DNA from: a virus
Lineage: Duplodnaviria > Heunggongvirae > Uroviricota > Caudoviricetes
Direction: 5' to 3' (one strand)
DNA length: 20,048 bases
IMG/VR virus record: IMGVR_UViG_2671180847_000011
Each line of letters opens with the position of its first letter. The first letter of the stretch is position 1. The notes beneath the pieces are model-generated. The model searched no databases. It was not told the DNA's origin and saw only the letters and a program-made list of their open reading frames with translations. Below, piece after piece: positions 6,286 to 16,709 of this stretch. The position numbers and the translations under genes are program-made.

Positions 6286-6909
6286 CTATGCGACCTCGGA
6301 AGGAAGTCCAATCATCTTATTCAAATCTTCTACCCGTAAAGCAGGAAGTGCTGTACTTGCTTTATCTGCTTCTTTTGGTAGCAATTCTTTGCTTTCAGGC
6401 CAAACTTCAATAAGTCGCTTAACTGTTGTGACTGAGTTCAAAGCAGCCCATACATTTGATTCGATATCCTTTTTCTTGGCTTCAAGTTTTTGTTGCAATG
6501 CGCAGATTTCATCAAACCTTTTTGTTATTTCGTGTTCTGCGTCAAACATGCATTTATCTTTTTCTGGGGTGGGGAGCAATATATCTTCACCGTTGCCGTC
6601 TTTTCCGTATGAATGCCAGCCAACCCTTCTTCCAGATACAGTCAGATAAATCGAAGTAGAACGAACATCGCATGAGTAAAATGAACATCCCATCTTCTCA
6701 AGTTCTTCACTTATAGCTGCTAACTTGGATGATAACCGATCCACTTCCTCAGTTTTCTTTTTACCGCCAAACGCAATAACTCTGGCGTCAAGTGCAAGCT
6801 GGTTCTTTAACTTTGTTACTTCTTCAAGTTCAGTGAAAACCCCAGACTTAATTAAAGCGTTACGAGCGATTTCCTCTTTCATTCTCGTAGTTAAGCGGAT
6901 TGATGACAT
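6286..6909 (-). CDS. Hypothetical protein, about 207 aa
   Basis: Start set at the internal ATG at 6909 (MSSIRLTTRMKEE...), which has a GAGAGGAA RBS; the track ORF begins earlier at 6969. No recognisable family. Confidence 0.55.
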   Translation of the reverse strand: MSSIRLTTRMKEEIARNALIKSGVFTELEEVTKLKNQLALDARVIAFGGKKKTEEVDRLSSKLAAISEELEKMGCSFYSCDVRSTSIYLTVSGRRVGWHSYGKDGNGEDILLPTPEKDKCMFDAEHEITKRFDEICALQQKLEAKKKDIESNVWAALNSVTTVKRLIEVWPESKELLPKEADKASTALPALRVEDLNKMIGLPSEVA

Positions 6910-7022
6910 ATTAATTCCTCTCAAATAAGTGGTTTGCTGCCTAATTTCATTTTCTGGCGACCAACACAAGTCACCCCCATTTCACTGCGTGGCTTGCGGT
7001 AGTAAATTAGGTTTGTTCAGAC

Positions 7023-7045
7023 AATAAAAAACCCACCGAAGTGGG
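7023..7045 (-). terminator. Rho-independent terminator (tL1-like) after the N-proximal genes
   Basis: Stem cccac(7032-7036)/gtggg(7041-7045), loop cgaa; on the minus strand it is followed by TTTTTTATT. Directly abuts the stop of the 7046-7384 gene. Confidence 0.6.
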
Positions 7046-7384
7046 CTATGACCATTTTTTATTTGGATTTCGTTGGTGAGCGTGATTAACAACTCTGTGC
7101 ATTACATCCTCATATTTTTCATCTTCAATTTTTTCGACATCGCGAGGAAATGGTGTTGCTAATGCTTTGTCAACTTTGTCCATTGGTTCTTCATTAATCT
7201 TATATTCAGGGCCATCATCTATAGCATTAAATCCAGGTGTTACACCGTTTTTTAATGCATATGCTATCCTTTTTTCCCATCTCGCTATTCTCCTCCTGTC
7301 TCGAGATGTAAGACCTCTATCAGATACTTTTCTGTTTTGTCCGCGGTCAGGATTAACATAAATAGTCTTTTTCACCATAAGCAT
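7046..7384 (-). CDS. Hypothetical basic protein, about 113 aa
   Basis: ORF immediately downstream of N; start uncertain (ATG at 7384 or 7378; the track uses a TTG at 7390). Confidence 0.5.
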   Translation of the reverse strand: MLMVKKTIYVNPDRGQNRKVSDRGLTSRDRRRIARWEKRIAYALKNGVTPGFNAIDDGPEYKINEEPMDKVDKALATPFPRDVEKIEDEKYEDVMHRVVNHAHQRNPNKKWS

Positions 7385-7386
7385 AC

Positions 7387-7692
7387 TCAATAAGCACCGT
7401 ACGGTAGTTTACTGTACAATTTTATTTTTTGGACTGCATGTATTTTGTTTCCTAATGGGTTTGAATCTTTGTAATAAATACTTCTATTTTTTCGAACGAC
7501 TTCTTCTTTCTTCTTGCAGCAAAGGCTTCCTAGCGATGCCGCTTTGTCTGCTCTGACGCAACCAGAGAGCTTTAGCGCAATTTTTCTCGCCAGTGCTTCA
7601 TTACTGCGTCGCTCGGCAATAAGTTCTGCTCTGCGAGCTTTGTAGCGGCTTTTTGCCGTACCTTTGGATTCTTTCCAGACAATGGTTACCAT
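7387..7692 (-). CDS. N: N-type transcription antiterminator with phage-21-type arginine-rich motif
   Basis: Contains GTAKSRYKARRAELIAERR, matching the phage 21 N boxB-binding motif as I remember it; first gene after pL/nutL; start taken at MVTIVWKESK (ATG 7692). Confidence 0.75.
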   Translation of the reverse strand: MVTIVWKESKGTAKSRYKARRAELIAERRSNEALARKIALKLSGCVRADKAASLGSLCCKKKEEVVRKNRSIYYKDSNPLGNKIHAVQKIKLYSKLPYGAY

Positions 7693-7802
7693 GATGGTCT
7701 CCTTTAAGTGGCTTTGGCGCATGACGCGTCGAGGTGCTTATCTTCTCGATCGCTGTCTTGCAGCTGCAATTCGCGCCATCCCCAAAACCACTCAAGTTCT
7801 GG

Positions 7803-7842
7803 TCTCAACGGTTAGGTTGAGAGTCCGTCGATGTTAAAGAGC
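7803..7842 (-). promoter_or_regulatory. nutL (boxA plus boxB)
   Basis: Minus strand reads GCTCTTTAACA (boxA, 7832-7842), then after 9 nt the hairpin tctcaac-ctaacc-gttgaga (boxB, 7803-7822). The same boxA sequence recurs at nutR. Confidence 0.7.
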
Positions 7843-7888
7843 CTGCCAATCTGTTCCGTTTGGCTTCCAGCGTCCTGCTGATGGCTTA

Positions 7889-7917
7889 AATTTAAGACTT
7901 CTTAATTTATTGGTCAA
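7889..7917 (-). promoter_or_regulatory. pL promoter with OL operators
   Basis: Minus strand -35 TTGACC (7912-7917), about 16-17 nt spacer, -10 TTAAAT/TAAATT (about 7889-7895). Operator-like palindrome ATTTAAGACTTCTTAATT at 7890-7907 lies between the -35 and -10; a second partial copy sits upstream near 7925-7945. Confidence 0.5.
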
Positions 7918-7980
7918 GTGCATTTTTGAAGAAAACTTAATTTTATGGGCGTGAATTTAGTTTGTCTTTGATTTTTAACG

Positions 7981-8008
7981 GGAAATAAAAAAGGGGCGAA
8001 AGCCCCTT
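7981..8008 (-). terminator. Rho-independent terminator immediately after the repressor gene
   Basis: Stem aaggggc(7991-7997)/gcccctt(8002-8008), loop gaaa; on the minus strand followed by TTTTTTTATTT. Overlaps the repressor stop codon. Confidence 0.65.
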
Positions 8009-8657
8009 AAGGAAGGTTTGCTAGCTTGGCATCAACGACAACGCCAATGATTTTACAGTTCCCATTGATTTCAATCATTGGGTATTGTGGATTGAGTGGT
8101 TTCAGGAATTTTCTACCGGCATCAATAACTAACTTTTTGAATGTCGCCTCGTTTTCTCCTTCAAGTTTGGCGACTACCAACTTTCCATTACGTGGTTCGA
8201 CTTCTGGGTCGACGAGAATAATCATCCCCTCAGGAATACTCAGTCCTGCCGGGGCAGTCATTGAATCGCCTTTAACGTCGAGCCAAAAAGAGTCTTCAGA
8301 ACAATCTACCGTTGTGTCGTACCAGTTATCTATTGCACGCCTATGATATGGCTCTACAGCTTCCATCCAACATCCTGCGCTTACCCAACTAATTAGAGGA
8401 TACGAACCTCTTGGATCATGCCTGCTGTGATAGGCAATGTTTGAAAGACTATCCTCTCCTTTCAACAGGTAATCAGGGGAGCACTGCAAAGCCTTGGCTA
8501 AGGCCAATAGGTTTTCGCCATTGGGCTCAGTTTCAGATCGCTCCCATTGGGAAATAGCAACATTAGACACGCCAACCATCTTGCCAAGGGCAGCCTGCCT
8601 AATCTTGAGTTCTTTTCTGCGAGCGCGAATACGCTCACCCATCAGTTGTGTATTCAT
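8007..8657 (-). CDS. c2: CI-type repressor (P22 C2-like; HTH plus LexA-like S24 autopeptidase), 216 aa
   Basis: N-terminal XRE-type helix-turn-helix (QAALGKMVGVSNVAISQWER); C-terminal domain with an Ala-Gly site (VSAGCW), Ser (GDSM) and Lys (KLVVAKL). Matches P22 C2 over its length as I remember it. Confidence 0.9.
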   Translation of the reverse strand: MNTQLMGERIRARRKELKIRQAALGKMVGVSNVAISQWERSETEPNGENLLALAKALQCSPDYLLKGEDSLSNIAYHSRHDPRGSYPLISWVSAGCWMEAVEPYHRRAIDNWYDTTVDCSEDSFWLDVKGDSMTAPAGLSIPEGMIILVDPEVEPRNGKLVVAKLEGENEATFKKLVIDAGRKFLKPLNPQYPMIEINGNCKIIGVVVDAKLANLP

Positions 8658-8737
8658 AGTTAAGACATCTTAAATAAACTTGACTTAAGATTCCTTTGGT
8701 GGATAATTTAAGTGTTCTTTAATTTCGGAGCGAGTCT
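8658..8737 (+). promoter_or_regulatory. OR operators with pR (and divergent pRM)
   Basis: pR -35 TTGACT (8690-8695), 16-nt spacer, -10 GATAAT (8712-8717), GGAG RBS before cro. P22-type operator palindromes: AGTTAAGACATCTTAAAT (8658-8675) and ATTTAAGTGTTCTTTAAT (8715-8732, overlapping the -10 and start site). Confidence 0.55.
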
Positions 8738-8923
8738 ATGTACAAAAAAGATGTTATTGACCACTTCGGAACCCAGCGTGCTGTTGCTAAAGCACTAGGC
8801 ATTAGCGATGCAGCAGTCTCTCAGTGGAAAGAAGTTATCCCAGAGAAAGACGCCTATCGATTGGAAATCGTTACAGCTGGCGCCCTGAAGTATCAAGAAA
8901 GTGCTTACCGCCAAGCGGCATAA
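8738..8923 (+). CDS. cro: Cro repressor (P22 Cro-like), 61 aa
   Basis: MYKKDVIDHFGTQRAVAKALGISDAAVSQWKEV... is a small HTH protein divergent from the repressor gene; near-identical to P22 Cro from memory. Confidence 0.85.
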   Translation: MYKKDVIDHFGTQRAVAKALGISDAAVSQWKEVIPEKDAYRLEIVTAGALKYQESAYRQAA

Positions 8924-8930
8924 GCAAATT

Positions 8931-8970
8931 GCTCTTTAACAGTTCTGGCCTTTCACCTCTAACCGGGTGA
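8931..8970 (+). promoter_or_regulatory. nutR (boxA plus boxB)
   Basis: GCTCTTTAACA (8931-8941) followed by the hairpin tcacc-tctaaccg-ggtga (8953-8970); same boxA as nutL and a shared CTAACC loop motif. Confidence 0.7.
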
Positions 8971-9038
8971 GCAAACATCAGCGGCAAATCCATTGGGTGT
9001 GCCGCTATAACTCAATATCAATATAGGAAAATTAACAA

Positions 9039-9335
9039 ATGGCACAAGCAAGCTACAGCAAGCCAACACAGCGAGAAATTGATCGCGCTGAAACTGATTT
9101 ACTCATCAACCTGTCAACGCTTACCCAGCGCGGTCTGGCAAAGATGATTGGCTGTCATGAATCGAAGATAAGCAGAACGGACTGGAGATTTATTGCTTCG
9201 GTCTTGTGTGCTTTCGGAATGGCATCAGACATCAGTCCGATTAGCAGGGCTTTTAAGTATGCGCTTGATGAAATCACAAAGAAAAAATCCCCGGCCGCCA
9301 CCGAGGATTTTAAGCAAATTGATATGCAATTCTGA
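9039..9335 (+). CDS. cII: CII-like transcriptional activator (P22 C1-like), 98 aa
   Basis: Homologous to lambda CII in my recollection, including the C-terminal [18 protein letters not shown] (lambda: KKRPAATERSEQIQMEF); sits after cro/nutR. Confidence 0.8.
9048..9061 (-). promoter_or_regulatory. CII-binding direct repeat TTGC-N6-TTGC (pRE-like)
   Basis: Minus strand reads TTGCtgtagcTTGC inside the 5' end of cII, the same location and orientation as lambda pRE. Confidence 0.45.
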
Positions 9336-9367
9336 GGGAATTACTGGATCAATCCACAGGAGTAATT

Positions 9368-9514
9368 ATGACAAAACAACTCAGTCCTTACCAGGACAAA
9401 ATTCACAAACACATACTACGTGATCGCTTCCTGTCCAGCTTCAAGCAGCCTGGTCGATTCCGGGCTGAGTTGGAAAAAGTGAAGCTGATGCAGAAGGAGA
9501 AAGGTCATGAGTAA
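9368..9514 (+). CDS. Small ORF between cII and O, 48 aa (position matches P22 orf48)
   Basis: My own translation ([48 protein letters not shown]); AGGAG RBS 5-6 nt upstream; its 3' end overlaps the O start. Confidence 0.45.
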
Positions 9515-10367
9515 TCTTGCAACCGTAACACATTTAAGGCCTTCACAACGGCCTGTGGAGCGTCGTGTGGCAGAAGTTGAAGATGGTTATACCCGTCTTG
9601 CAAATGCCCTGTATGAAGAGCTTATCGGCGCAGATTTAACGAAAAATCAGAGCAAGGTTGCCCACGCCATATGCCGTAAAACATACGGCTACGGTAAAAA
9701 GATGGATCGCATCTCTGATAGTCAGTTAGCTCAAATTACCAGGCTGCCAAGACAGAAGGTAAACAAGGCCAAGAATGAGCTTATCGCGATGAAGGTTATC
9801 CTTCGCGAAGGCCAGCAAATCGGGCCTAACAAGAACATCGAGGAATGGCAAATAGAAGGGTGTCACTACTCTGGTGATAATGTCACTGCATTGGTGACAA
9901 AAAGTGTCACCAAAACGGTGACAGCGCTGTCACCAAAACAGGGACACACAAAAGAAACTATTACAAAAGAAAAAAGAAATAATAAAAACACTATGTCCGA
10001 AAGTGTTCGGACGGAGTGTGAAAAATCACATGACCGTCACGAAGAAACCGACAAGGCATTCGAGGAAATATTCTGGTGTGCAGGCATGCGGAAAGCCGGG
10101 AAGAAAAACGCAGCTTCGGCATTCAGAACACAGTTCAGGGAATGGCGTAAAACTACCAGGGGTACGGCAAGCGAGTTTGCCACGATGCTGGCAGAAGACA
10201 TCGCATGCAGGAATGGTAAGCAGTTCGGATTCGACAGGTTGTTACCATCGAGCTACCTGAACGGTCAACGCTGGAACGACGAGAAGCCAGAAACTATTCA
10301 ACCACAATCCAAACCATCATCCGCAATCACCGTATCGAAAACTGGCTACGTGTTTTTCGACAGGTGA
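9507..10367 (+). CDS. O: Replication initiator, lambda O-like, 286 aa
   Basis: N-terminal domain alignable to lambda O ([14 protein letters not shown]...[11 protein letters not shown]...[25 protein letters not shown]); the origin iterons lie inside the gene. Confidence 0.85.
9861..9990 (+). repeat. Replication origin: four 19-bp iterons plus A+T-rich region
   Basis: Iterons TGTCAC-N7-(G)GTGACA/GGGACA starting at 9861, 9881, 9905 and 9928, each an internal inverted repeat, followed by an A/T-rich stretch at about 9951-9990. Same architecture as ori-lambda within O. Confidence 0.65.
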
Positions 10368-10370
10368 ACC

Positions 10371-10478
10371 ATGAAATCAAAAATCAAATCGCTACTGGTC
10401 GCTGGTTATAACCACGGCTGGTTAAGTATTTCGTTTGTCGATTTCTGGTTTAAAAATCTCAATCTGAGGGAATCATGA
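10371..10478 (+). CDS. Small ORF between O and the helicase gene, 35 aa
   Basis: My own translation (MKSKIKSLLVAGYNHGWLSISFVDFWFKNLNLRES); AGGTGA upstream; stop overlaps the helicase ATG (ATGA). May instead be a non-coding linker. Confidence 0.3.
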   Translation: MKSKIKSLLVAGYNHGWLSISFVDFWFKNLNLRES

Positions 10479-12355
10479 CGCCAAGTGAACTTAGCGACCT
10501 GCTTTGGGCGCAGGTTGACAGGGTGGCTCCGCACCTGTTGCCAAACGGCAAGAAAGAGGGGCATGAGTGGGTTGCCGGTAACGTCAATGGTGACAAGGGA
10601 AACAGCCTTAAGGTCAACCTTAGCGGCAAGAAAAAATGGGCTGATTTCGCTGAGGGAGACGGCGGTGACATGCTTGATTTGTGGATGGCATGTCGTGGAA
10701 TTAACCTGCATCAGGCTATGCAGGAAGCGAAAGCATTTCTCGGTATCAAGGATGACGATCACCATTTCGATGCCAAACGTGAGAAAAAATTCTCCAGACC
10801 TGATCGCAAGAAAATCGCCCGCTACGTTACCAGAACAGAATCCCATCTTGAGTACCTGCAATCGCGTGGCATATCGCCAGAAGTCGTAAAGCGCTACGAG
10901 GTTGTCAGCGGCAAGGTGTGGAATGGAGAACGAGAACTTGATGCACTGGTGCTTCCGTACAAACGCGATGGTGAGTTGTTGCAGGTCAAGCGAATCAGCA
11001 CTGAGCGCCCGGACGGGAAGAAAGTCATTATGGCAGAAGGTGATTGCGAACCTTGTCTGTTCGGATGGCAGGCTCTGGACGCTGGCGTAAGGGCGGTTGT
11101 ACTTTGCGAAGGCGAAATTGATTGTATGAGCTATGCGCAATACGGCATCTCGGCGTTATCCGTGCCGTTTGGTGGCGGGAAAGGCGCTAAGCAACAGTGG
11201 ATTGAGTTTGAGTATCACAACCTCGACAGGTTTGAGGAAATATTCATCTCGATGGACGTTGATGATGTTGGTCGTGAAGCCGCAAGGGAAATCGCAAGCC
11301 GACTCGGTGAACATCGTTGCCGTCTTGTTACTCTGCCGTACAAAGACATCAACGAATGCCTGATGAACGGTGTTACCGAGGATGAAATCTGGCAGTACAT
11401 CGGCACGGCATCCTACTTCGATCCTGAAGAACTCTACAGCGCGCGAGAGTTTTACCAGGACACTATCAACGCTTTCTACGGCAAGCAGCAGTATCTGTTT
11501 AATCCACCGTGGGAATCTCTGGCAGATAAATTCCAGTTCCGTGAGGCCGAGTTGACGCTGGTCAATGGTGTGAACGGTCACGGAAAAACGGAGGTTGTCG
11601 GGCATATGGCACTTGAGGCAATGCGTCAGGGTGTGAAGACATGCATCGCGTCACTTGAGCTGAAGCCTGGTATTCTCCTTAAGCGCCTTACCCGTCAGGC
11701 GACGTGCTGCAAGATGCCGCCAGTGCTGGAAATTGACTCTGCATTTAAATTTTATGACGAAAGACTTTGGGTGTTTGGCCTGACCGGAACGGCGAAAGCC
11801 GATAGGCTGATCGAAATATTCGACTACGCTCGCCGCCGATACGGGATCCAGTTATTCATCATCGACAGCCTGATGAAATGTGGCATAGGCGACGATGACT
11901 ATAACGGGCAGAAGGCGTTTGTTGACTCGATTTGCGACTTCAAAAACAAAACAAACTCCCACGTCATTCTCGTTACTCACTCCAGAAAAGGAGACAGCGA
12001 AGAAAAACCAACCGGGAAAATGGACGTAAAAGGCTCTGGAGCGATAACAGACCTGACAGACAACCTTTTCATCATCTGGCGTAACAAGGCTCGCGAGAGA
12101 GCGTTACAGAGGGTTCAGAGTGGTGAAAAGATGTCAGAGAAGGACGAACAGCTACTGGCATCTCCGGCATCTGTTTTGATGCTTGAAAAACAACGTAACG
12201 GCGAAGGTTGGGAAGGTGGTGTCCCGTTGTTCCTTGACGAGCAATCGCACCAGTTCCTGCAACTTGAATCAGGATCGCCATATAGCTACATCGCCAATAT
12301 GCCGAAATCGGAATATGACGAGGCGTGGCGACAGGAAAACGTGACGGAGTATTAA
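10475..12355 (+). CDS. Bifunctional primase-helicase (Toprim domain plus DnaB-like ATPase), 626 aa
   Basis: Toprim-like acidic motifs (VLCEGEIDCMSYAQ; DVDDVGREAA) in the N-terminal half; Walker A GVNGHGKT and Walker B LFIIDSLMK in the C-terminal half. Occupies the lambda P position. Confidence 0.8.
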   Translation: MTPSELSDLLWAQVDRVAPHLLPNGKKEGHEWVAGNVNGDKGNSLKVNLSGKKKWADFAEGDGGDMLDLWMACRGINLHQAMQEAKAFLGIKDDDHHFDAKREKKFSRPDRKKIARYVTRTESHLEYLQSRGISPEVVKRYEVVSGKVWNGERELDALVLPYKRDGELLQVKRISTERPDGKKVIMAEGDCEPCLFGWQALDAGVRAVVLCEGEIDCMSYAQYGISALSVPFGGGKGAKQQWIEFEYHNLDRFEEIFISMDVDDVGREAAREIASRLGEHRCRLVTLPYKDINECLMNGVTEDEIWQYIGTASYFDPEELYSAREFYQDTINAFYGKQQYLFNPPWESLADKFQFREAELTLVNGVNGHGKTEVVGHMALEAMRQGVKTCIASLELKPGILLKRLTRQATCCKMPPVLEIDSAFKFYDERLWVFGLTGTAKADRLIEIFDYARRRYGIQLFIIDSLMKCGIGDDDYNGQKAFVDSICDFKNKTNSHVILVTHSRKGDSEEKPTGKMDVKGSGAITDLTDNLFIIWRNKARERALQRVQSGEKMSEKDEQLLASPASVLMLEKQRNGEGWEGGVPLFLDEQSHQFLQLESGSPYSYIANMPKSEYDEAWRQENVTEY

Positions 12356-14584: not shown

Positions 14585-14874
14585 TGGCTAATCTACGCAA
14601 AGAAGCACGCGGCAGAGAATGCCAGGTACGTATTTACGGCGTATGCAATGGTAATCCTGAAACTACAGTTCTGGCACATTACCGGATGGCTGGAATTTGT
14701 GGAACGGGGATGAAGCCTGACGACCTGATCGGCGCATGGGCTTGTTGCGCGTGTCACGATGAAATCGACCGACGCACCCATAACCTCGACAACAAAGACG
14801 CCAGACTTTACCACCTCGAAGGCGTGATCAGGACGCAGGCGATACTGCTGAAGGAGGGGAAGATTAAGTCATGA
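14584..14874 (+). CDS. DUF1364 (YbcO-like) protein, 96 aa
   Basis: MANLRKEARGRECQVRIYGVCNGNPETTVLAHYR...CCACHDEIDRR resembles DLP12 YbcO with conserved Cys/His; start overlaps the upstream stop. Confidence 0.75.
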   Translation: MANLRKEARGRECQVRIYGVCNGNPETTVLAHYRMAGICGTGMKPDDLIGAWACCACHDEIDRRTHNLDNKDARLYHLEGVIRTQAILLKEGKIKS

Positions 14875-15233
14875 ACGAATATCAGTTTGTGCTTCCATAC
14901 CCGCCGTCGGTGAATACCTACTGGCGAAGACGGGGAAGCCAATACTACATCAGCGATAAAGGCCAGAAATACCGAAAAGACGTTCAGCAAATCATCCGCC
15001 AACTTAAGTTAGACATTTTCACCAAATCACGACTCCGCATCAAAGTCATCGCAGACGTTCCAGACTCCCGCCGCCGAGACCTCGATAACATCCTGAAAGG
15101 TTTACTCGACTCCCTTATCCACGCCGGATTTGCGGAAGACGACGAGCAATTCGATGACATTCGCGTAATTCGTGGTGTGAAAGTACCAGGCGGACGGCTT
15201 GGAATAAAAATCACCGAACTGGAGAACGTATGA
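14871..15233 (+). CDS. rusA: RusA Holliday-junction resolvase, 120 aa
   Basis: Strong match to the RusA family (LPYPPSVNTYWRRRG...DSRRRDLDNILKGLLDSL...GGRLGIKITE). Confidence 0.85.
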   Translation: MNEYQFVLPYPPSVNTYWRRRGSQYYISDKGQKYRKDVQQIIRQLKLDIFTKSRLRIKVIADVPDSRRRDLDNILKGLLDSLIHAGFAEDDEQFDDIRVIRGVKVPGGRLGIKITELENV

Positions 15234-15418
15234 ACGCCACAATTCAAACGATACCAGAGCTTCTTATCCAGACACGAGGCAATCAGACCGAAGTGGCGAG
15301 GATGCTTTCCTGCGCAAGAGGAACAGTGCTCAAGTACAACCGAGACAGCAAAGGCGAGCGTCACGTAATAGTTAACGGTGTCCTGATGGTCAAACAGGGC
15401 AAAAGGGGAAGGCCATGA
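15230..15418 (+). CDS. ninH: NinH, 62 aa
   Basis: KTIPELLIQTRGNQTEVARMLSCARGTVLKYNRD resembles lambda NinH. Confidence 0.7.
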   Translation: MNATIQTIPELLIQTRGNQTEVARMLSCARGTVLKYNRDSKGERHVIVNGVLMVKQGKRGRP

Positions 15419-16120: not shown

Positions 16121-16310
16121 TGGGTTAATTCGCTCGTTGTGGTAGTGAGATAAAAAGAGGCGGCGCTTACTACCGATTCCGCCTAGTTGGTCACTTCGAC
16201 GTATCGTCTGGAACTCCAACCATCGCAGGCTGAGAGGTCTGCAAATGCAATCCCGAAACAGTTCGCAGGTAATAGTTAGAGCCTGCATAACGGTTTCGGG
16301 ATTTTTTATT
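16116..16310 (+). ncRNA. Short late leader transcript (lambda 6S-like) ending at tR-prime
   Basis: Hairpin cccgaaac(16252-16259)...gtttcggg(16293-16300) followed by TTTTTT at 16302-16307 (tR-prime). Start inferred from the PR-prime -10; the transcript is an inference. Confidence 0.55.
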
Positions 16311-16311
16311 T

Positions 16312-16386
16312 GGGTCAGTCGTATAAAGGTCATTACGGAAGGCTGTTAACCTTCTTATCGTGGTTCGAGTCCACGCTGTCCCGCCA
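16312..16386 (+). tRNA. tRNA-like gene, anticodon GUU (Asn) by manual fold, 75 nt
   Basis: Acceptor gggtcag/ctgtccc (one T-T mismatch), anticodon stem gaagg/ccttc with loop ctGTTaa, T arm cgtgg-TTCGAGT-ccacg, 3' GCCA. The D arm pairs poorly, so it may be degenerate. Confidence 0.45.
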
Positions 16387-16391
16387 AACAT

Positions 16392-16467
16392 GCTGGTTTA
16401 GCTCCAATGGTAGAGCAGTCGCCTTGTAAGCGAATGGGTAGCGGTTCAAGTCCGTTAACCAGCACCA
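16392..16467 (+). tRNA. tRNA-like gene, anticodon UGU (Thr) by manual fold, 76 nt
   Basis: Perfect 7-bp acceptor gctggtt/aaccagc, D stem gctc/gagc, anticodon loop ctTGTaa, T arm agcgg-TTCAAGT-ccgtt, discriminator A plus CCA. Confidence 0.6.
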
Positions 16468-16709
16468 TTACTGAGCCGTAGCCACTGGCTATCCTGAATT
16501 CATCAGTGATAGTTATGCTGCGGCCTTCTACACATGACCTTCGTGAAAGAGGGTGGCAGGAGGTTGCGCTAACAACCTCCTGCCGTTTTGCCCGTGCATA
16601 TCGGTCACGAACAAATCTGATTACTAAACACAGTAGACTGGATTTGTTCTATCAGTAATCGACCTTATTCCTAATTAAATAGAGCAAATCCCCTTATTGG
16701 GGGTAAGAC

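Follow-up and report, generated by a model that had tools for sequence, protein, structure and literature searches.

Positions 7387 to 8970 of the viral DNA analyzed here (20,048 nucleotides; this whole stretch is called the window) make up coliphage 21's classical control region for immunity and N antitermination, which is already known and contains no new combination of elements. Taken together with nun at its left and cII at its right, and as judged from sequence, the region is almost certainly the imm21 control module of a lambdoid prophage; the evidence consists of sequence identity to phage 21, domain content, the anatomy of operators and nut sites, and the boundaries of homology. The main value of the analysis lies in a correction: the apparent hybrid of a “P22 repressor” with a “phage 21 N” is textbook imm21, which phage 21 and lambda imm21 carry, as do DE3 in BL21(DE3) and many other E. 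coli prophages, and no new regulatory combination or specificity need be proposed. The region looks like a P22/phage 21 hybrid because the repressor, Cro and operators of phage 21 are themselves relatives of those of P22.

Identity and anatomy of the control region

Boundaries of homology were established from MAFFT alignments of pieces of up to 3 kb against P22, phage 21 and lambda. Window positions 7511 to 9270 aligned without gaps to phage 21 (OL657228) at 99 to 100% identity, and megablast returned a single gap-free segment (7470 to 9378, 97.6% identity) against phage 21, DE3 and lambda imm21, and a single segment across 7000 to 9400 (99.5% identity) against mEp235. The first-pass annotation had taken the region for a new mosaic of a P22 module and a phage 21 module, to be abandoned were the whole collinear with one known phage; it is collinear with phage 21 over 7470 to 9378 and with mEp235 over 7000 to 9400, and the “P22-like” repressor and Cro are phage 21's own proteins. 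At least 80% of window 7000 to 9400 was found in 176 of 5,426 complete E. coli genomes. Equating the entire window with one known phage was rejected, the best phage record covering at most 51% of it (mEp235 just 43%). The features annotated in the phage 21 record (pL, OL1 to OL3, the three OR operators, boxA-L and boxA-R, and the nutL and nutR stem-loops) map onto the window with a constant offset of 26248. The features of the region are as follows:

7030–7047: nun terminator
7046–7384, minus strand: nun, an HK022-type transcription-arrest (lambda exclusion) gene, starting 2 nt past the N stop codon
7387–7692, minus strand: N antiterminator gene (101 aa), with AAGGAG preceding the ATG (7692) by 7 nt
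7411–7416 and 7434–7439: −10 and −35, respectively, of the annotated nun promoter, which maps inside the 3′ end of N
7803–7822, minus strand: boxB-L of nutL, 7-bp stem UCUCAAC/GUUGAGA, loop CUAACC (identical to the phage 21 nutL stem-loop, OL657228 34051–34070)
7831–7841, minus strand: boxA-L of nutL, GCTCTTTAACA
7889–7917, minus strand: pL promoter, TTGACC-17-TAAATT, overlapping OL1 (start annotated at 34130 in phage 21, window 7882)
7890–7907, 7925–7942 and 7954–7971: OL1, OL2 and OL3, 18 bp each, by alignment to the phage 21 annotation
7991–8008, minus strand: intrinsic terminator hairpin directly 3′ of the repressor gene (−12.1 kcal/mol, z = −3.07), where phage 21 annotates a terminator
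8007–8657, minus strand: prophage repressor (phage 21 cI, homologue of P22 C2), 216 aa, with HTH_3 and Peptidase_S24 Pfam domains
8658–8675, 8683–8700 and 8706–8723: OR3, OR2 and OR1, 18 bp each, by alignment to the phage 21 annotation
about 8667–8695, minus strand: PRM, by alignment to the P22 annotation
8680–8707, plus strand: pR, TTGACT-16-GATAAT
8738–8923, plus strand: cro (P22_Cro family, PF14549; PDB 1RZS), 61 aa
8931–8941, plus strand: boxA-R of nutR, GCTCTTTAACA (phage 21 boxA-R, 35179–35186, falls at 8931–8938)
8953–8970, plus strand: boxB-R of nutR, stem UCACCU/GGGUGA, loop CUAACC (identical to the phage 21 stem-loop at 35201–35218)
9039–9335, plus strand: cII, lysogeny activator, with a Phage_CII domain
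9284–9311, minus strand: oop terminator, on the strand opposite cII

The repressor is identical to the full phage 21 open reading frame in all 216 residues (650 of 651 nt) and Cro in all 61 (186 of 186 nt). Both are also close to their P22 counterparts, as had been read from the sequence beforehand (202 of 216 residues shared with C2, 93.5%; 60 of 61 shared with Cro, 98%), and the helix-turn-helix region of the repressor (residues 21 to 40) is identical in P22 C2, for which N-terminal-domain structures are available (1ADR and 2R1J). The Peptidase_S24 match is strong (E = 1.2e-30) and the motifs VSAG/CW, GDSM and FKKL are those of C2, save a change from Q to C just past the Ala-Gly site; with its S24 domain, Ala-Gly site and Ser/Lys dyad, the protein appears to be a LexA-like self-cleaving repressor. 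All six operators are identical to the phage 21 sites. The palindromes also fit the P22 consensus, as previously suggested: ATTTAAG-N4-CTTAAAT, with up to three mismatches, matched five times against 1.18 expected, a count reached in none of 100 shuffles, and four of the five matches sit in OL or OR. Relative to P22, OL1 and OR1 are identical, OL2 differs by one base and OL3 by four, and the OR region matches phage 21 at 80 of 80 positions versus 76 of 80 for P22.

The antitermination elements are likewise those of phage 21, which bears out the earlier reading of the N motif and the nut sites. Residues 8 to 29 of N, ESKGTAKSRYKARRAELIAERR, match the arginine-rich motif of the phage 21 N peptide in PDB 1NYB chain A at all 22 positions, and a boxA with a CUAACC-loop boxB hairpin is present downstream of both pL and pR. 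OL, OR, boxA and boxB show 100% identity to phage 21 on both sides. The significance of the boxB hairpins rests on this identity to annotated nut sites, since their fold energies did not differ from those of shuffled sequence (z = 0.09 and −1.13). At the gathering threshold, an Rfam scan of the window returned two tRNAs alone, with no nut, boxB or oop family, and so lends the nut sites no independent support.

N, nun and the ends of the phage 21 homology

N shares 77 of 98 aligned residues with phage 21 N; residues 1 to 57 are identical and every difference falls after residue 57, beyond which only some one aligned residue in two matches, and nucleotide identity over the 3′ end of the gene (7387 to 7469) is about 49%. 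Identity to phage 21 N does not extend along the whole protein to its C-terminal part, and the Pfam N_peptide match was weak and under its cut-off. The gene is a variant allele of the mEp235/mEpX1 type that has the phage 21 RNA-binding end. As its last third (from about residue 58; 7387 to about 7510) departs from the phage 21 allele, the protein could contact RNA polymerase differently.

The neighboring Nun is identical to PDB 6ALG chain N in 107 of 109 residues and to 1HJI chain B in all 26 residues of the arginine-rich motif, and has the C-terminal ...KKWS end. Homology to HK022 and O276 spans window 7030 to 7504 (96.6% identity) and covers nun and the roughly 120 bp in front of it, in which the annotated nun promoter lies. 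The alignments place the left joint within the 3′ third of N (about 7470 to 7510), where the HK022 Nun cassette starts; the recombination joint proposed by the first-pass annotation between N and the repressor terminator was not borne out. That the prophage carries the HK022 Nun exclusion factor beside N is of minor interest; this Nun would be expected to exclude lambda by arrest at the lambda nut sites, a mechanism described in PMC5386594.

It is conceivable, if rather improbable, that N is a natural chimera, with the RNA-binding and central part of phage 21 N (residues 1 to about 62) followed by about 39 C-terminal residues whose DNA corresponds to the non-coding stretch ahead of nun in HK022, nun promoter included. 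Were this so, the HK022 nun leader would be a relic of the 3′ end of an N gene, and HK022 would descend from a phage with both N and Nun in which put RNA had replaced the 5′ part of N. A single stretch of DNA would then serve as N coding sequence and as a nun promoter active in the prophage, and an N-using phage would tolerate Nun because its own boxB, with a CUAACC loop, is unlike Nun's target, the lambda boxB. The arrangement of this N with nun is already in GenBank (mEp235, mEpX1 and Kapi1), and literature searches found no papers discussing it.

The C-terminus unlike that of phage 21 also allows a less favorable reading, in which the region belongs to a cryptic prophage and has decayed beyond function, N being inactive as a result of its chimeric 3′ end and the nut sites and operators being relics; in keeping with this, coverage of the window by any one phage or complete E. 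coli genome in the collections searched reaches 62% at most, so that the prophage as a whole is not a known viable phage. However, the open reading frames of N, nun, the repressor, cro and cII are all full length and intact, as are the flanking replication, nin, Q, lysis and terminase genes, and the same N allele with the nun cassette (99.2 to 99.6% identity) is carried by the plaque-forming phages mEp235 and mEpX1. Decay is therefore very unlikely.

At the other end, cII matches phage 21 cII at 88 of 98 residues and P22 c1 at 19 of 89, and is of the phage 21/lambda type, not the P22 c1 type. Phage 21 homology decays over the last ∼50 nt of the gene, placing the right joint, by alignment, at the 3′ end of cII (about 9280). 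Further right, lambda identity starts exactly at the Q start codon (15415), a third true joint, in agreement with the joint previously proposed after the nin region and with the lambda-type assignment of Q and the lysis genes (207 of 207 residues identical to lambda in Q, 106 of 107 in S, 155 of 158 in R). The type of cII, the N/nun joint and the end of P22 homology at boxA-R had been overlooked in the first-pass annotation.

Kinship with P22

The repressor, Cro and operators of phage 21 have long been known as close relatives of those of P22. Botstein and Herskowitz are said to have described, in 1974, an immunity specificity common to P22 immC and phage 21. In literature searches no explicit statement of homoimmunity between the two was found, just a citation of Poteete et al. 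1980.

P22 (immC, NC_002371 30816 to 31970) aligns collinearly with the window between boxA-L (∼7826) and boxA-R (∼8940) and nowhere beyond: identity climbs at boxA-L from some 25% to some 86%, lies between 81% (c2) and 95% (OR) within the aligned span, and stops at boxA-R on the right. Codon differences from P22 are mostly silent, with 97 synonymous versus 14 non-synonymous in the repressor gene and 16 versus 1 in cro, a pattern that points to ancient divergence under purifying selection. The likeness to P22 stems from an old common origin of imm21 and P22 immC. Recent import from P22 was rejected on these two grounds (81 to 95% nucleotide identity, substitutions mostly synonymous), and neither the near-identity to P22 DNA nor the linkage to P22 gene 24, nut sites and c1 that would mark a P22-derived segment was found.

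The mosaic reading, already refuted by collinearity with phage 21, takes the region for the product of recent recombination that set a P22-derived block of repressor, cro and operators between phage 21-derived N and nut elements to give a new combination of immunity and antitermination specificities. It can draw on the protein identities to P22, on the identity of OR1 and OL1, and on the end of P22 homology at boxA on both sides, the trace expected of a cassette exchange there, but the block is 99.8 to 100% identical to phage 21 and merely 81 to 95% to P22 at the nucleotide level, phage 21 identity does not fall at either boxA, the largely synonymous differences from P22 are therefore old, and the same arrangement exists in phage 21 (isolated in the 1950s), DE3, lambda imm21, HK629 and mEp235. 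Any exchange at boxA is older than phage 21 itself.

Proposed working and comparison with known phages

As an imm21 module, the region would be expected to work as follows, with DNA binding, immunity specificity and N-dependent readthrough predicted from the biology of phage 21, P22 and lambda. The 216-aa repressor, with a helix-turn-helix N-terminal domain and a putatively self-cleaving S24 C-terminal domain, would bind the three 18-bp operators at OR and the three at OL, shutting off pL and pR while allowing its own transcription from PRM; during lytic growth Cro would occupy the same operators. After induction, the transcripts from pL and pR would each bear boxA and a boxB hairpin with the CUAACC loop, and N, made from the pL transcript, would bind boxB through its arginine-rich motif and, with host Nus factors, allow RNA polymerase to read through downstream terminators. 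The prophage is predicted to use phage 21-type N/nut antitermination, and identity of proteins and operators suggests that it would be homoimmune with phage 21 and lambda imm21; homoimmunity with P22 immC is predicted as well.

Among known systems, P22 parts from the window outside the immunity core: its gene 24 antiterminator (26 of 76 residues identical to the window N) is not alignable, and neither are its two boxB hairpins or c1. HK022 (X16093, AF069308; O276, MH547045) lacks an N gene, relying on putL RNA in its place, and its 120 bp upstream of nun are not an intact open reading frame, whereas in the window they encode the C-terminus of an intact N. In phage 21 (OL657228), lambda imm21 (OM418625) and DE3 of BL21(DE3) (EU078592), the gene order N-nutL-pL/OL-cI-OR/pR-cro-nutR-cII matches that of the window. 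Phage 21 differs in having ral/ea10 at the left of N, where the window has nun, in the last ∼15 codons of cII, and in its lambda-type replication genes O and P, in place of which the window has an O-like protein and a Toprim/DnaB-like protein. The arrangement was also seen in HK629. Sequenced in 2012, mEp235 (JQ182731/NC_019708) differs from the window in its replication genes, part of the nin region and its early-left genes, which are other modules, and shares with it nun, the same N allele, the imm21 core, cII and a DUF2740 open reading frame, as well as lambda-type Q, S and R.

Identity of the immunity region

Features of positions 7000-9400 were established from an ORF listing and by direct reading of the sequence:

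7046-7384 (-), nun
7387-7692 (-), N, with AAGGAG 7 nt before the ATG
7803-7822 (-), left boxB hairpin
7831-7841 (-), left boxA
7889-7917 (-), pL, in agreement with the promoter scan
7890-7971, three left operators (OL)
7991-8008 (-), strong hairpin terminator after the repressor gene, in agreement with the terminator scan
8007-8657 (-), repressor gene, 216 aa
8658-8723, three right operators (OR)
8680-8707, pR (TTGACT-16-GATAAT), among the OR operators, in agreement with the promoter scan
8738-8923, cro, rightward
8931-8941, right boxA, rightward
8953-8970, right boxB, rightward
9039-9335, cII, rightward

Terminators were also called after nun and at the oop position. It is unlikely that N begins at the in-frame ATG found at 7722.

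The first-pass annotation had read this region as a mosaic in which a P22-type repressor, Cro and operators were joined to phage 21-type N and nut sites, and each of these likenesses was borne out. The repressor (Pfam HTH_3 and Peptidase_S24) shares 202 of 216 residues with P22 C2, and Cro (Pfam P22_Cro) shares 60 of 61 with P22 Cro; among solved structures, the nearest to the repressor is the N-terminal domain of P22 C2, and the nearest to Cro is that of P22 Cro. The P22 operator consensus ATTTAAG-N4-CTTAAAT (≤3 mismatches) occurs five times in the window versus 1.18 expected (0 of 100 shuffles reached five), with four of the matches within OL/OR. At all 22 positions, residues 8-29 of N, which include the arginine-rich motif, match the phage 21 N peptide of PDB 1NYB, a crystal structure with boxB RNA. 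Both nut sites carry the same boxA, GCTCTTTAACA, followed by a hairpin with the loop CUAACC; hairpin energy alone was not significant against shuffled sequence (z = 0.09 and -1.13).

The mosaic itself did not hold, as alignment showed the region to be collinear with one known phage, phage 21, the outcome that the annotation had named as speaking against it. When positions 7000-9400 were searched by megablast against 50,697 phage records, mEp235 matched the entire query in one ungapped stretch (99.5% identity); another such stretch, 7470-9378, was shared with coliphage 21 itself (OL657228; 97.6%) and likewise with lambda imm21, lambda h434 imm21 and the DE3 prophage. Measured segment by segment in a four-way alignment, 7511-9270 had 99-100% identity to phage 21 (repressor, 650/651 nt; cro, 186/186 nt; OL, OR and both copies of boxA and boxB, 100%). 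The repressor (216/216 aa) and Cro (61/61 aa) are the same as the products of the phage 21 ORFs, N agrees with its phage 21 counterpart throughout residues 1-57, and cII matches at 88 of 98 residues. The elements pL, OL1-3, three OR operators, boxA-L/R, nutL/nutR stem-loops and tR1, annotated in the curated phage 21 record, all map onto the window by one constant offset, 26248. Given these alignments, protein identities and annotations, the region is imm21, the defining immunity and N/nut module of phage 21. It is unlikely that this module is a decayed cryptic remnant, since every gene is intact, and plaque-forming mEp phages carry this N allele and nun as well. In OL657228, the annotated repressor starts at an internal Met and has 190 aa; the entire ORF (34255-34905, 216 aa) is open there, equals that of the window and is co-linear with P22 C2, including the start of the helix-turn-helix.

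Relation to P22

P22 could be aligned only from boxA-L (∼7826) through boxA-R (∼8940), with identities of 84% (OL), 81% (c2), 95% (OR) and 90% (cro); P22 gene 24 (26/76), both boxB hairpins and c1 (19/89) could not be aligned with the window. Identity to phage 21 showed no discontinuity at boxA-L or boxA-R. Codons differing from P22 were mostly synonymous (repressor, 97 versus 14 non-synonymous; cro, 16 versus 1), so that the P22 likeness reflects ancient homology under purifying selection and no recent transfer. The pattern of identity to the two phages rules out a recent recombination between P22 and phage 21. An immunity specificity common to P22 and phage 21 was reportedly described by Botstein and Herskowitz in 1974. 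The repressor helix-turn-helix (residues 21-40), OR1 and OL1 are identical to those of P22, in agreement with the classical finding that P22 and phage 21 operators are equivalent.

Left joint and predicted regulation

Identity to phage 21 falls off at 7470-7510, inside N after codon ∼57-62. Leftward, positions 7504 to 7030 share 96.6% identity with HK022 and with O276, a hybrid of it, and 99.2-99.6% with mEp235 and mEpX1; the same nun cassette occurs in Kapi1 and Lambdavirus PDP110P1, and at 92.7% in PA28 and Stx1a phages. A short AGAAGTCG, common to all three phages, lies at the junction. The block holds an intact HK022-type nun 2 nt downstream of N (107/109 residues shared with the Nun chain in PDB 6ALG, arginine-rich motif identical to 1HJI); N and Nun are thus both present in this phage. 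It also holds the nun terminator and ∼120 bp 5′ of nun that reach into the N ORF; the nun promoter annotated in O276 falls within these ∼120 bp and maps to 7411-7416 (-10) and 7434-7439 (-35). Because HK022 homology extends into N, DNA that serves in HK022 as non-coding nun leader here encodes the C-terminal ∼39 residues of N. Just left of the nun terminator, a 227-aa ORF (6286-6969, -), an accessory gene of the early-left operon, is a full-length match to Pfam Nmad5 (“nucleotide modification associated domain 5”; E = 3.8e-71).

By identity to phage 21, P22 and lambda, repressor dimers on OR1/OR2 and OL1/OL2 would keep pR and pL off in the prophage and drive PRM. Induction would follow RecA-stimulated self-cleavage of the repressor at Ala-Gly via its S24 domain, after which Cro would occupy the same operators. 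Transcripts from pL and pR would display boxA and boxB, the latter bound by the N arginine-rich motif, and N with NusA/B/E/G would render RNA polymerase terminator resistant, allowing expression past tR1/tL. cII would activate pRE; in the phage 21 annotation, the pRE binding site lies across the start of cII. Nun binds lambda boxB and arrests polymerase (PMC5386594). By analogy with HK022, Nun may be made in the lysogen and arrest polymerase on superinfecting lambda via lambda boxB; the resident phage, whose own boxB has a different loop, is predicted to be unaffected by the Nun it makes.

Right joints and comparison with known phages

Identity to phage 21 falls off over the final ∼50 nt of cII, starting near 9280, and the replication genes differ from those of phage 21. 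This module (9507-12355, +) encodes a Phage_rep_O protein (286 aa), then a 626-aa Toprim plus DnaB-like/AAA_25 primase-helicase; it is neither lambda O/P nor P22 18/12, and is common to Sf101, mEp043 and phiv205-1. Upstream of Q lie RusA (14871-15233) and ninH (15230-15418), without the NinI phosphatase, unlike lambda. The proposed joint after the nin region was located precisely, with lambda identity beginning at the Q ATG (15415), and the lambda-type assignment of Q and lysis genes was likewise upheld (Q, 207/207; S, 106/107; R, 155/158 identical). Between Q and S, tRNA-Asn(GTT) and tRNA-Thr(TGT) (16312-16467, +) lie in a segment (about 16290-16470) with the same sequence as the tRNA pair that follows pR′ in phage 21. 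The segment sits right after the lambda-type pR′/qut/6S-RNA terminator, replacing part of the lambda orf-64 region, and lambda identity resumes to its right. The lambda-type late control region thus contains a second patch of phage 21 type.

At least 80% of the 2.4-kb stretch was found in 176 of 5426 complete E. coli genomes, and 180 records matched at ≥99% identity; it also occurs in mEp235, Kapi1, phiv205-1, HK629, DE3 and phage 21. The whole 20-kb window was covered to ≤51% by any phage record and to ≤62% by any complete E. coli genome. It is a typical unique lambdoid mosaic, whose modules (HK620/Sf101/mEp043-like early genes, imm21, lambda Q and lysis) are known singly and whose assortment is unique; the imm21 control module here is an already known one.
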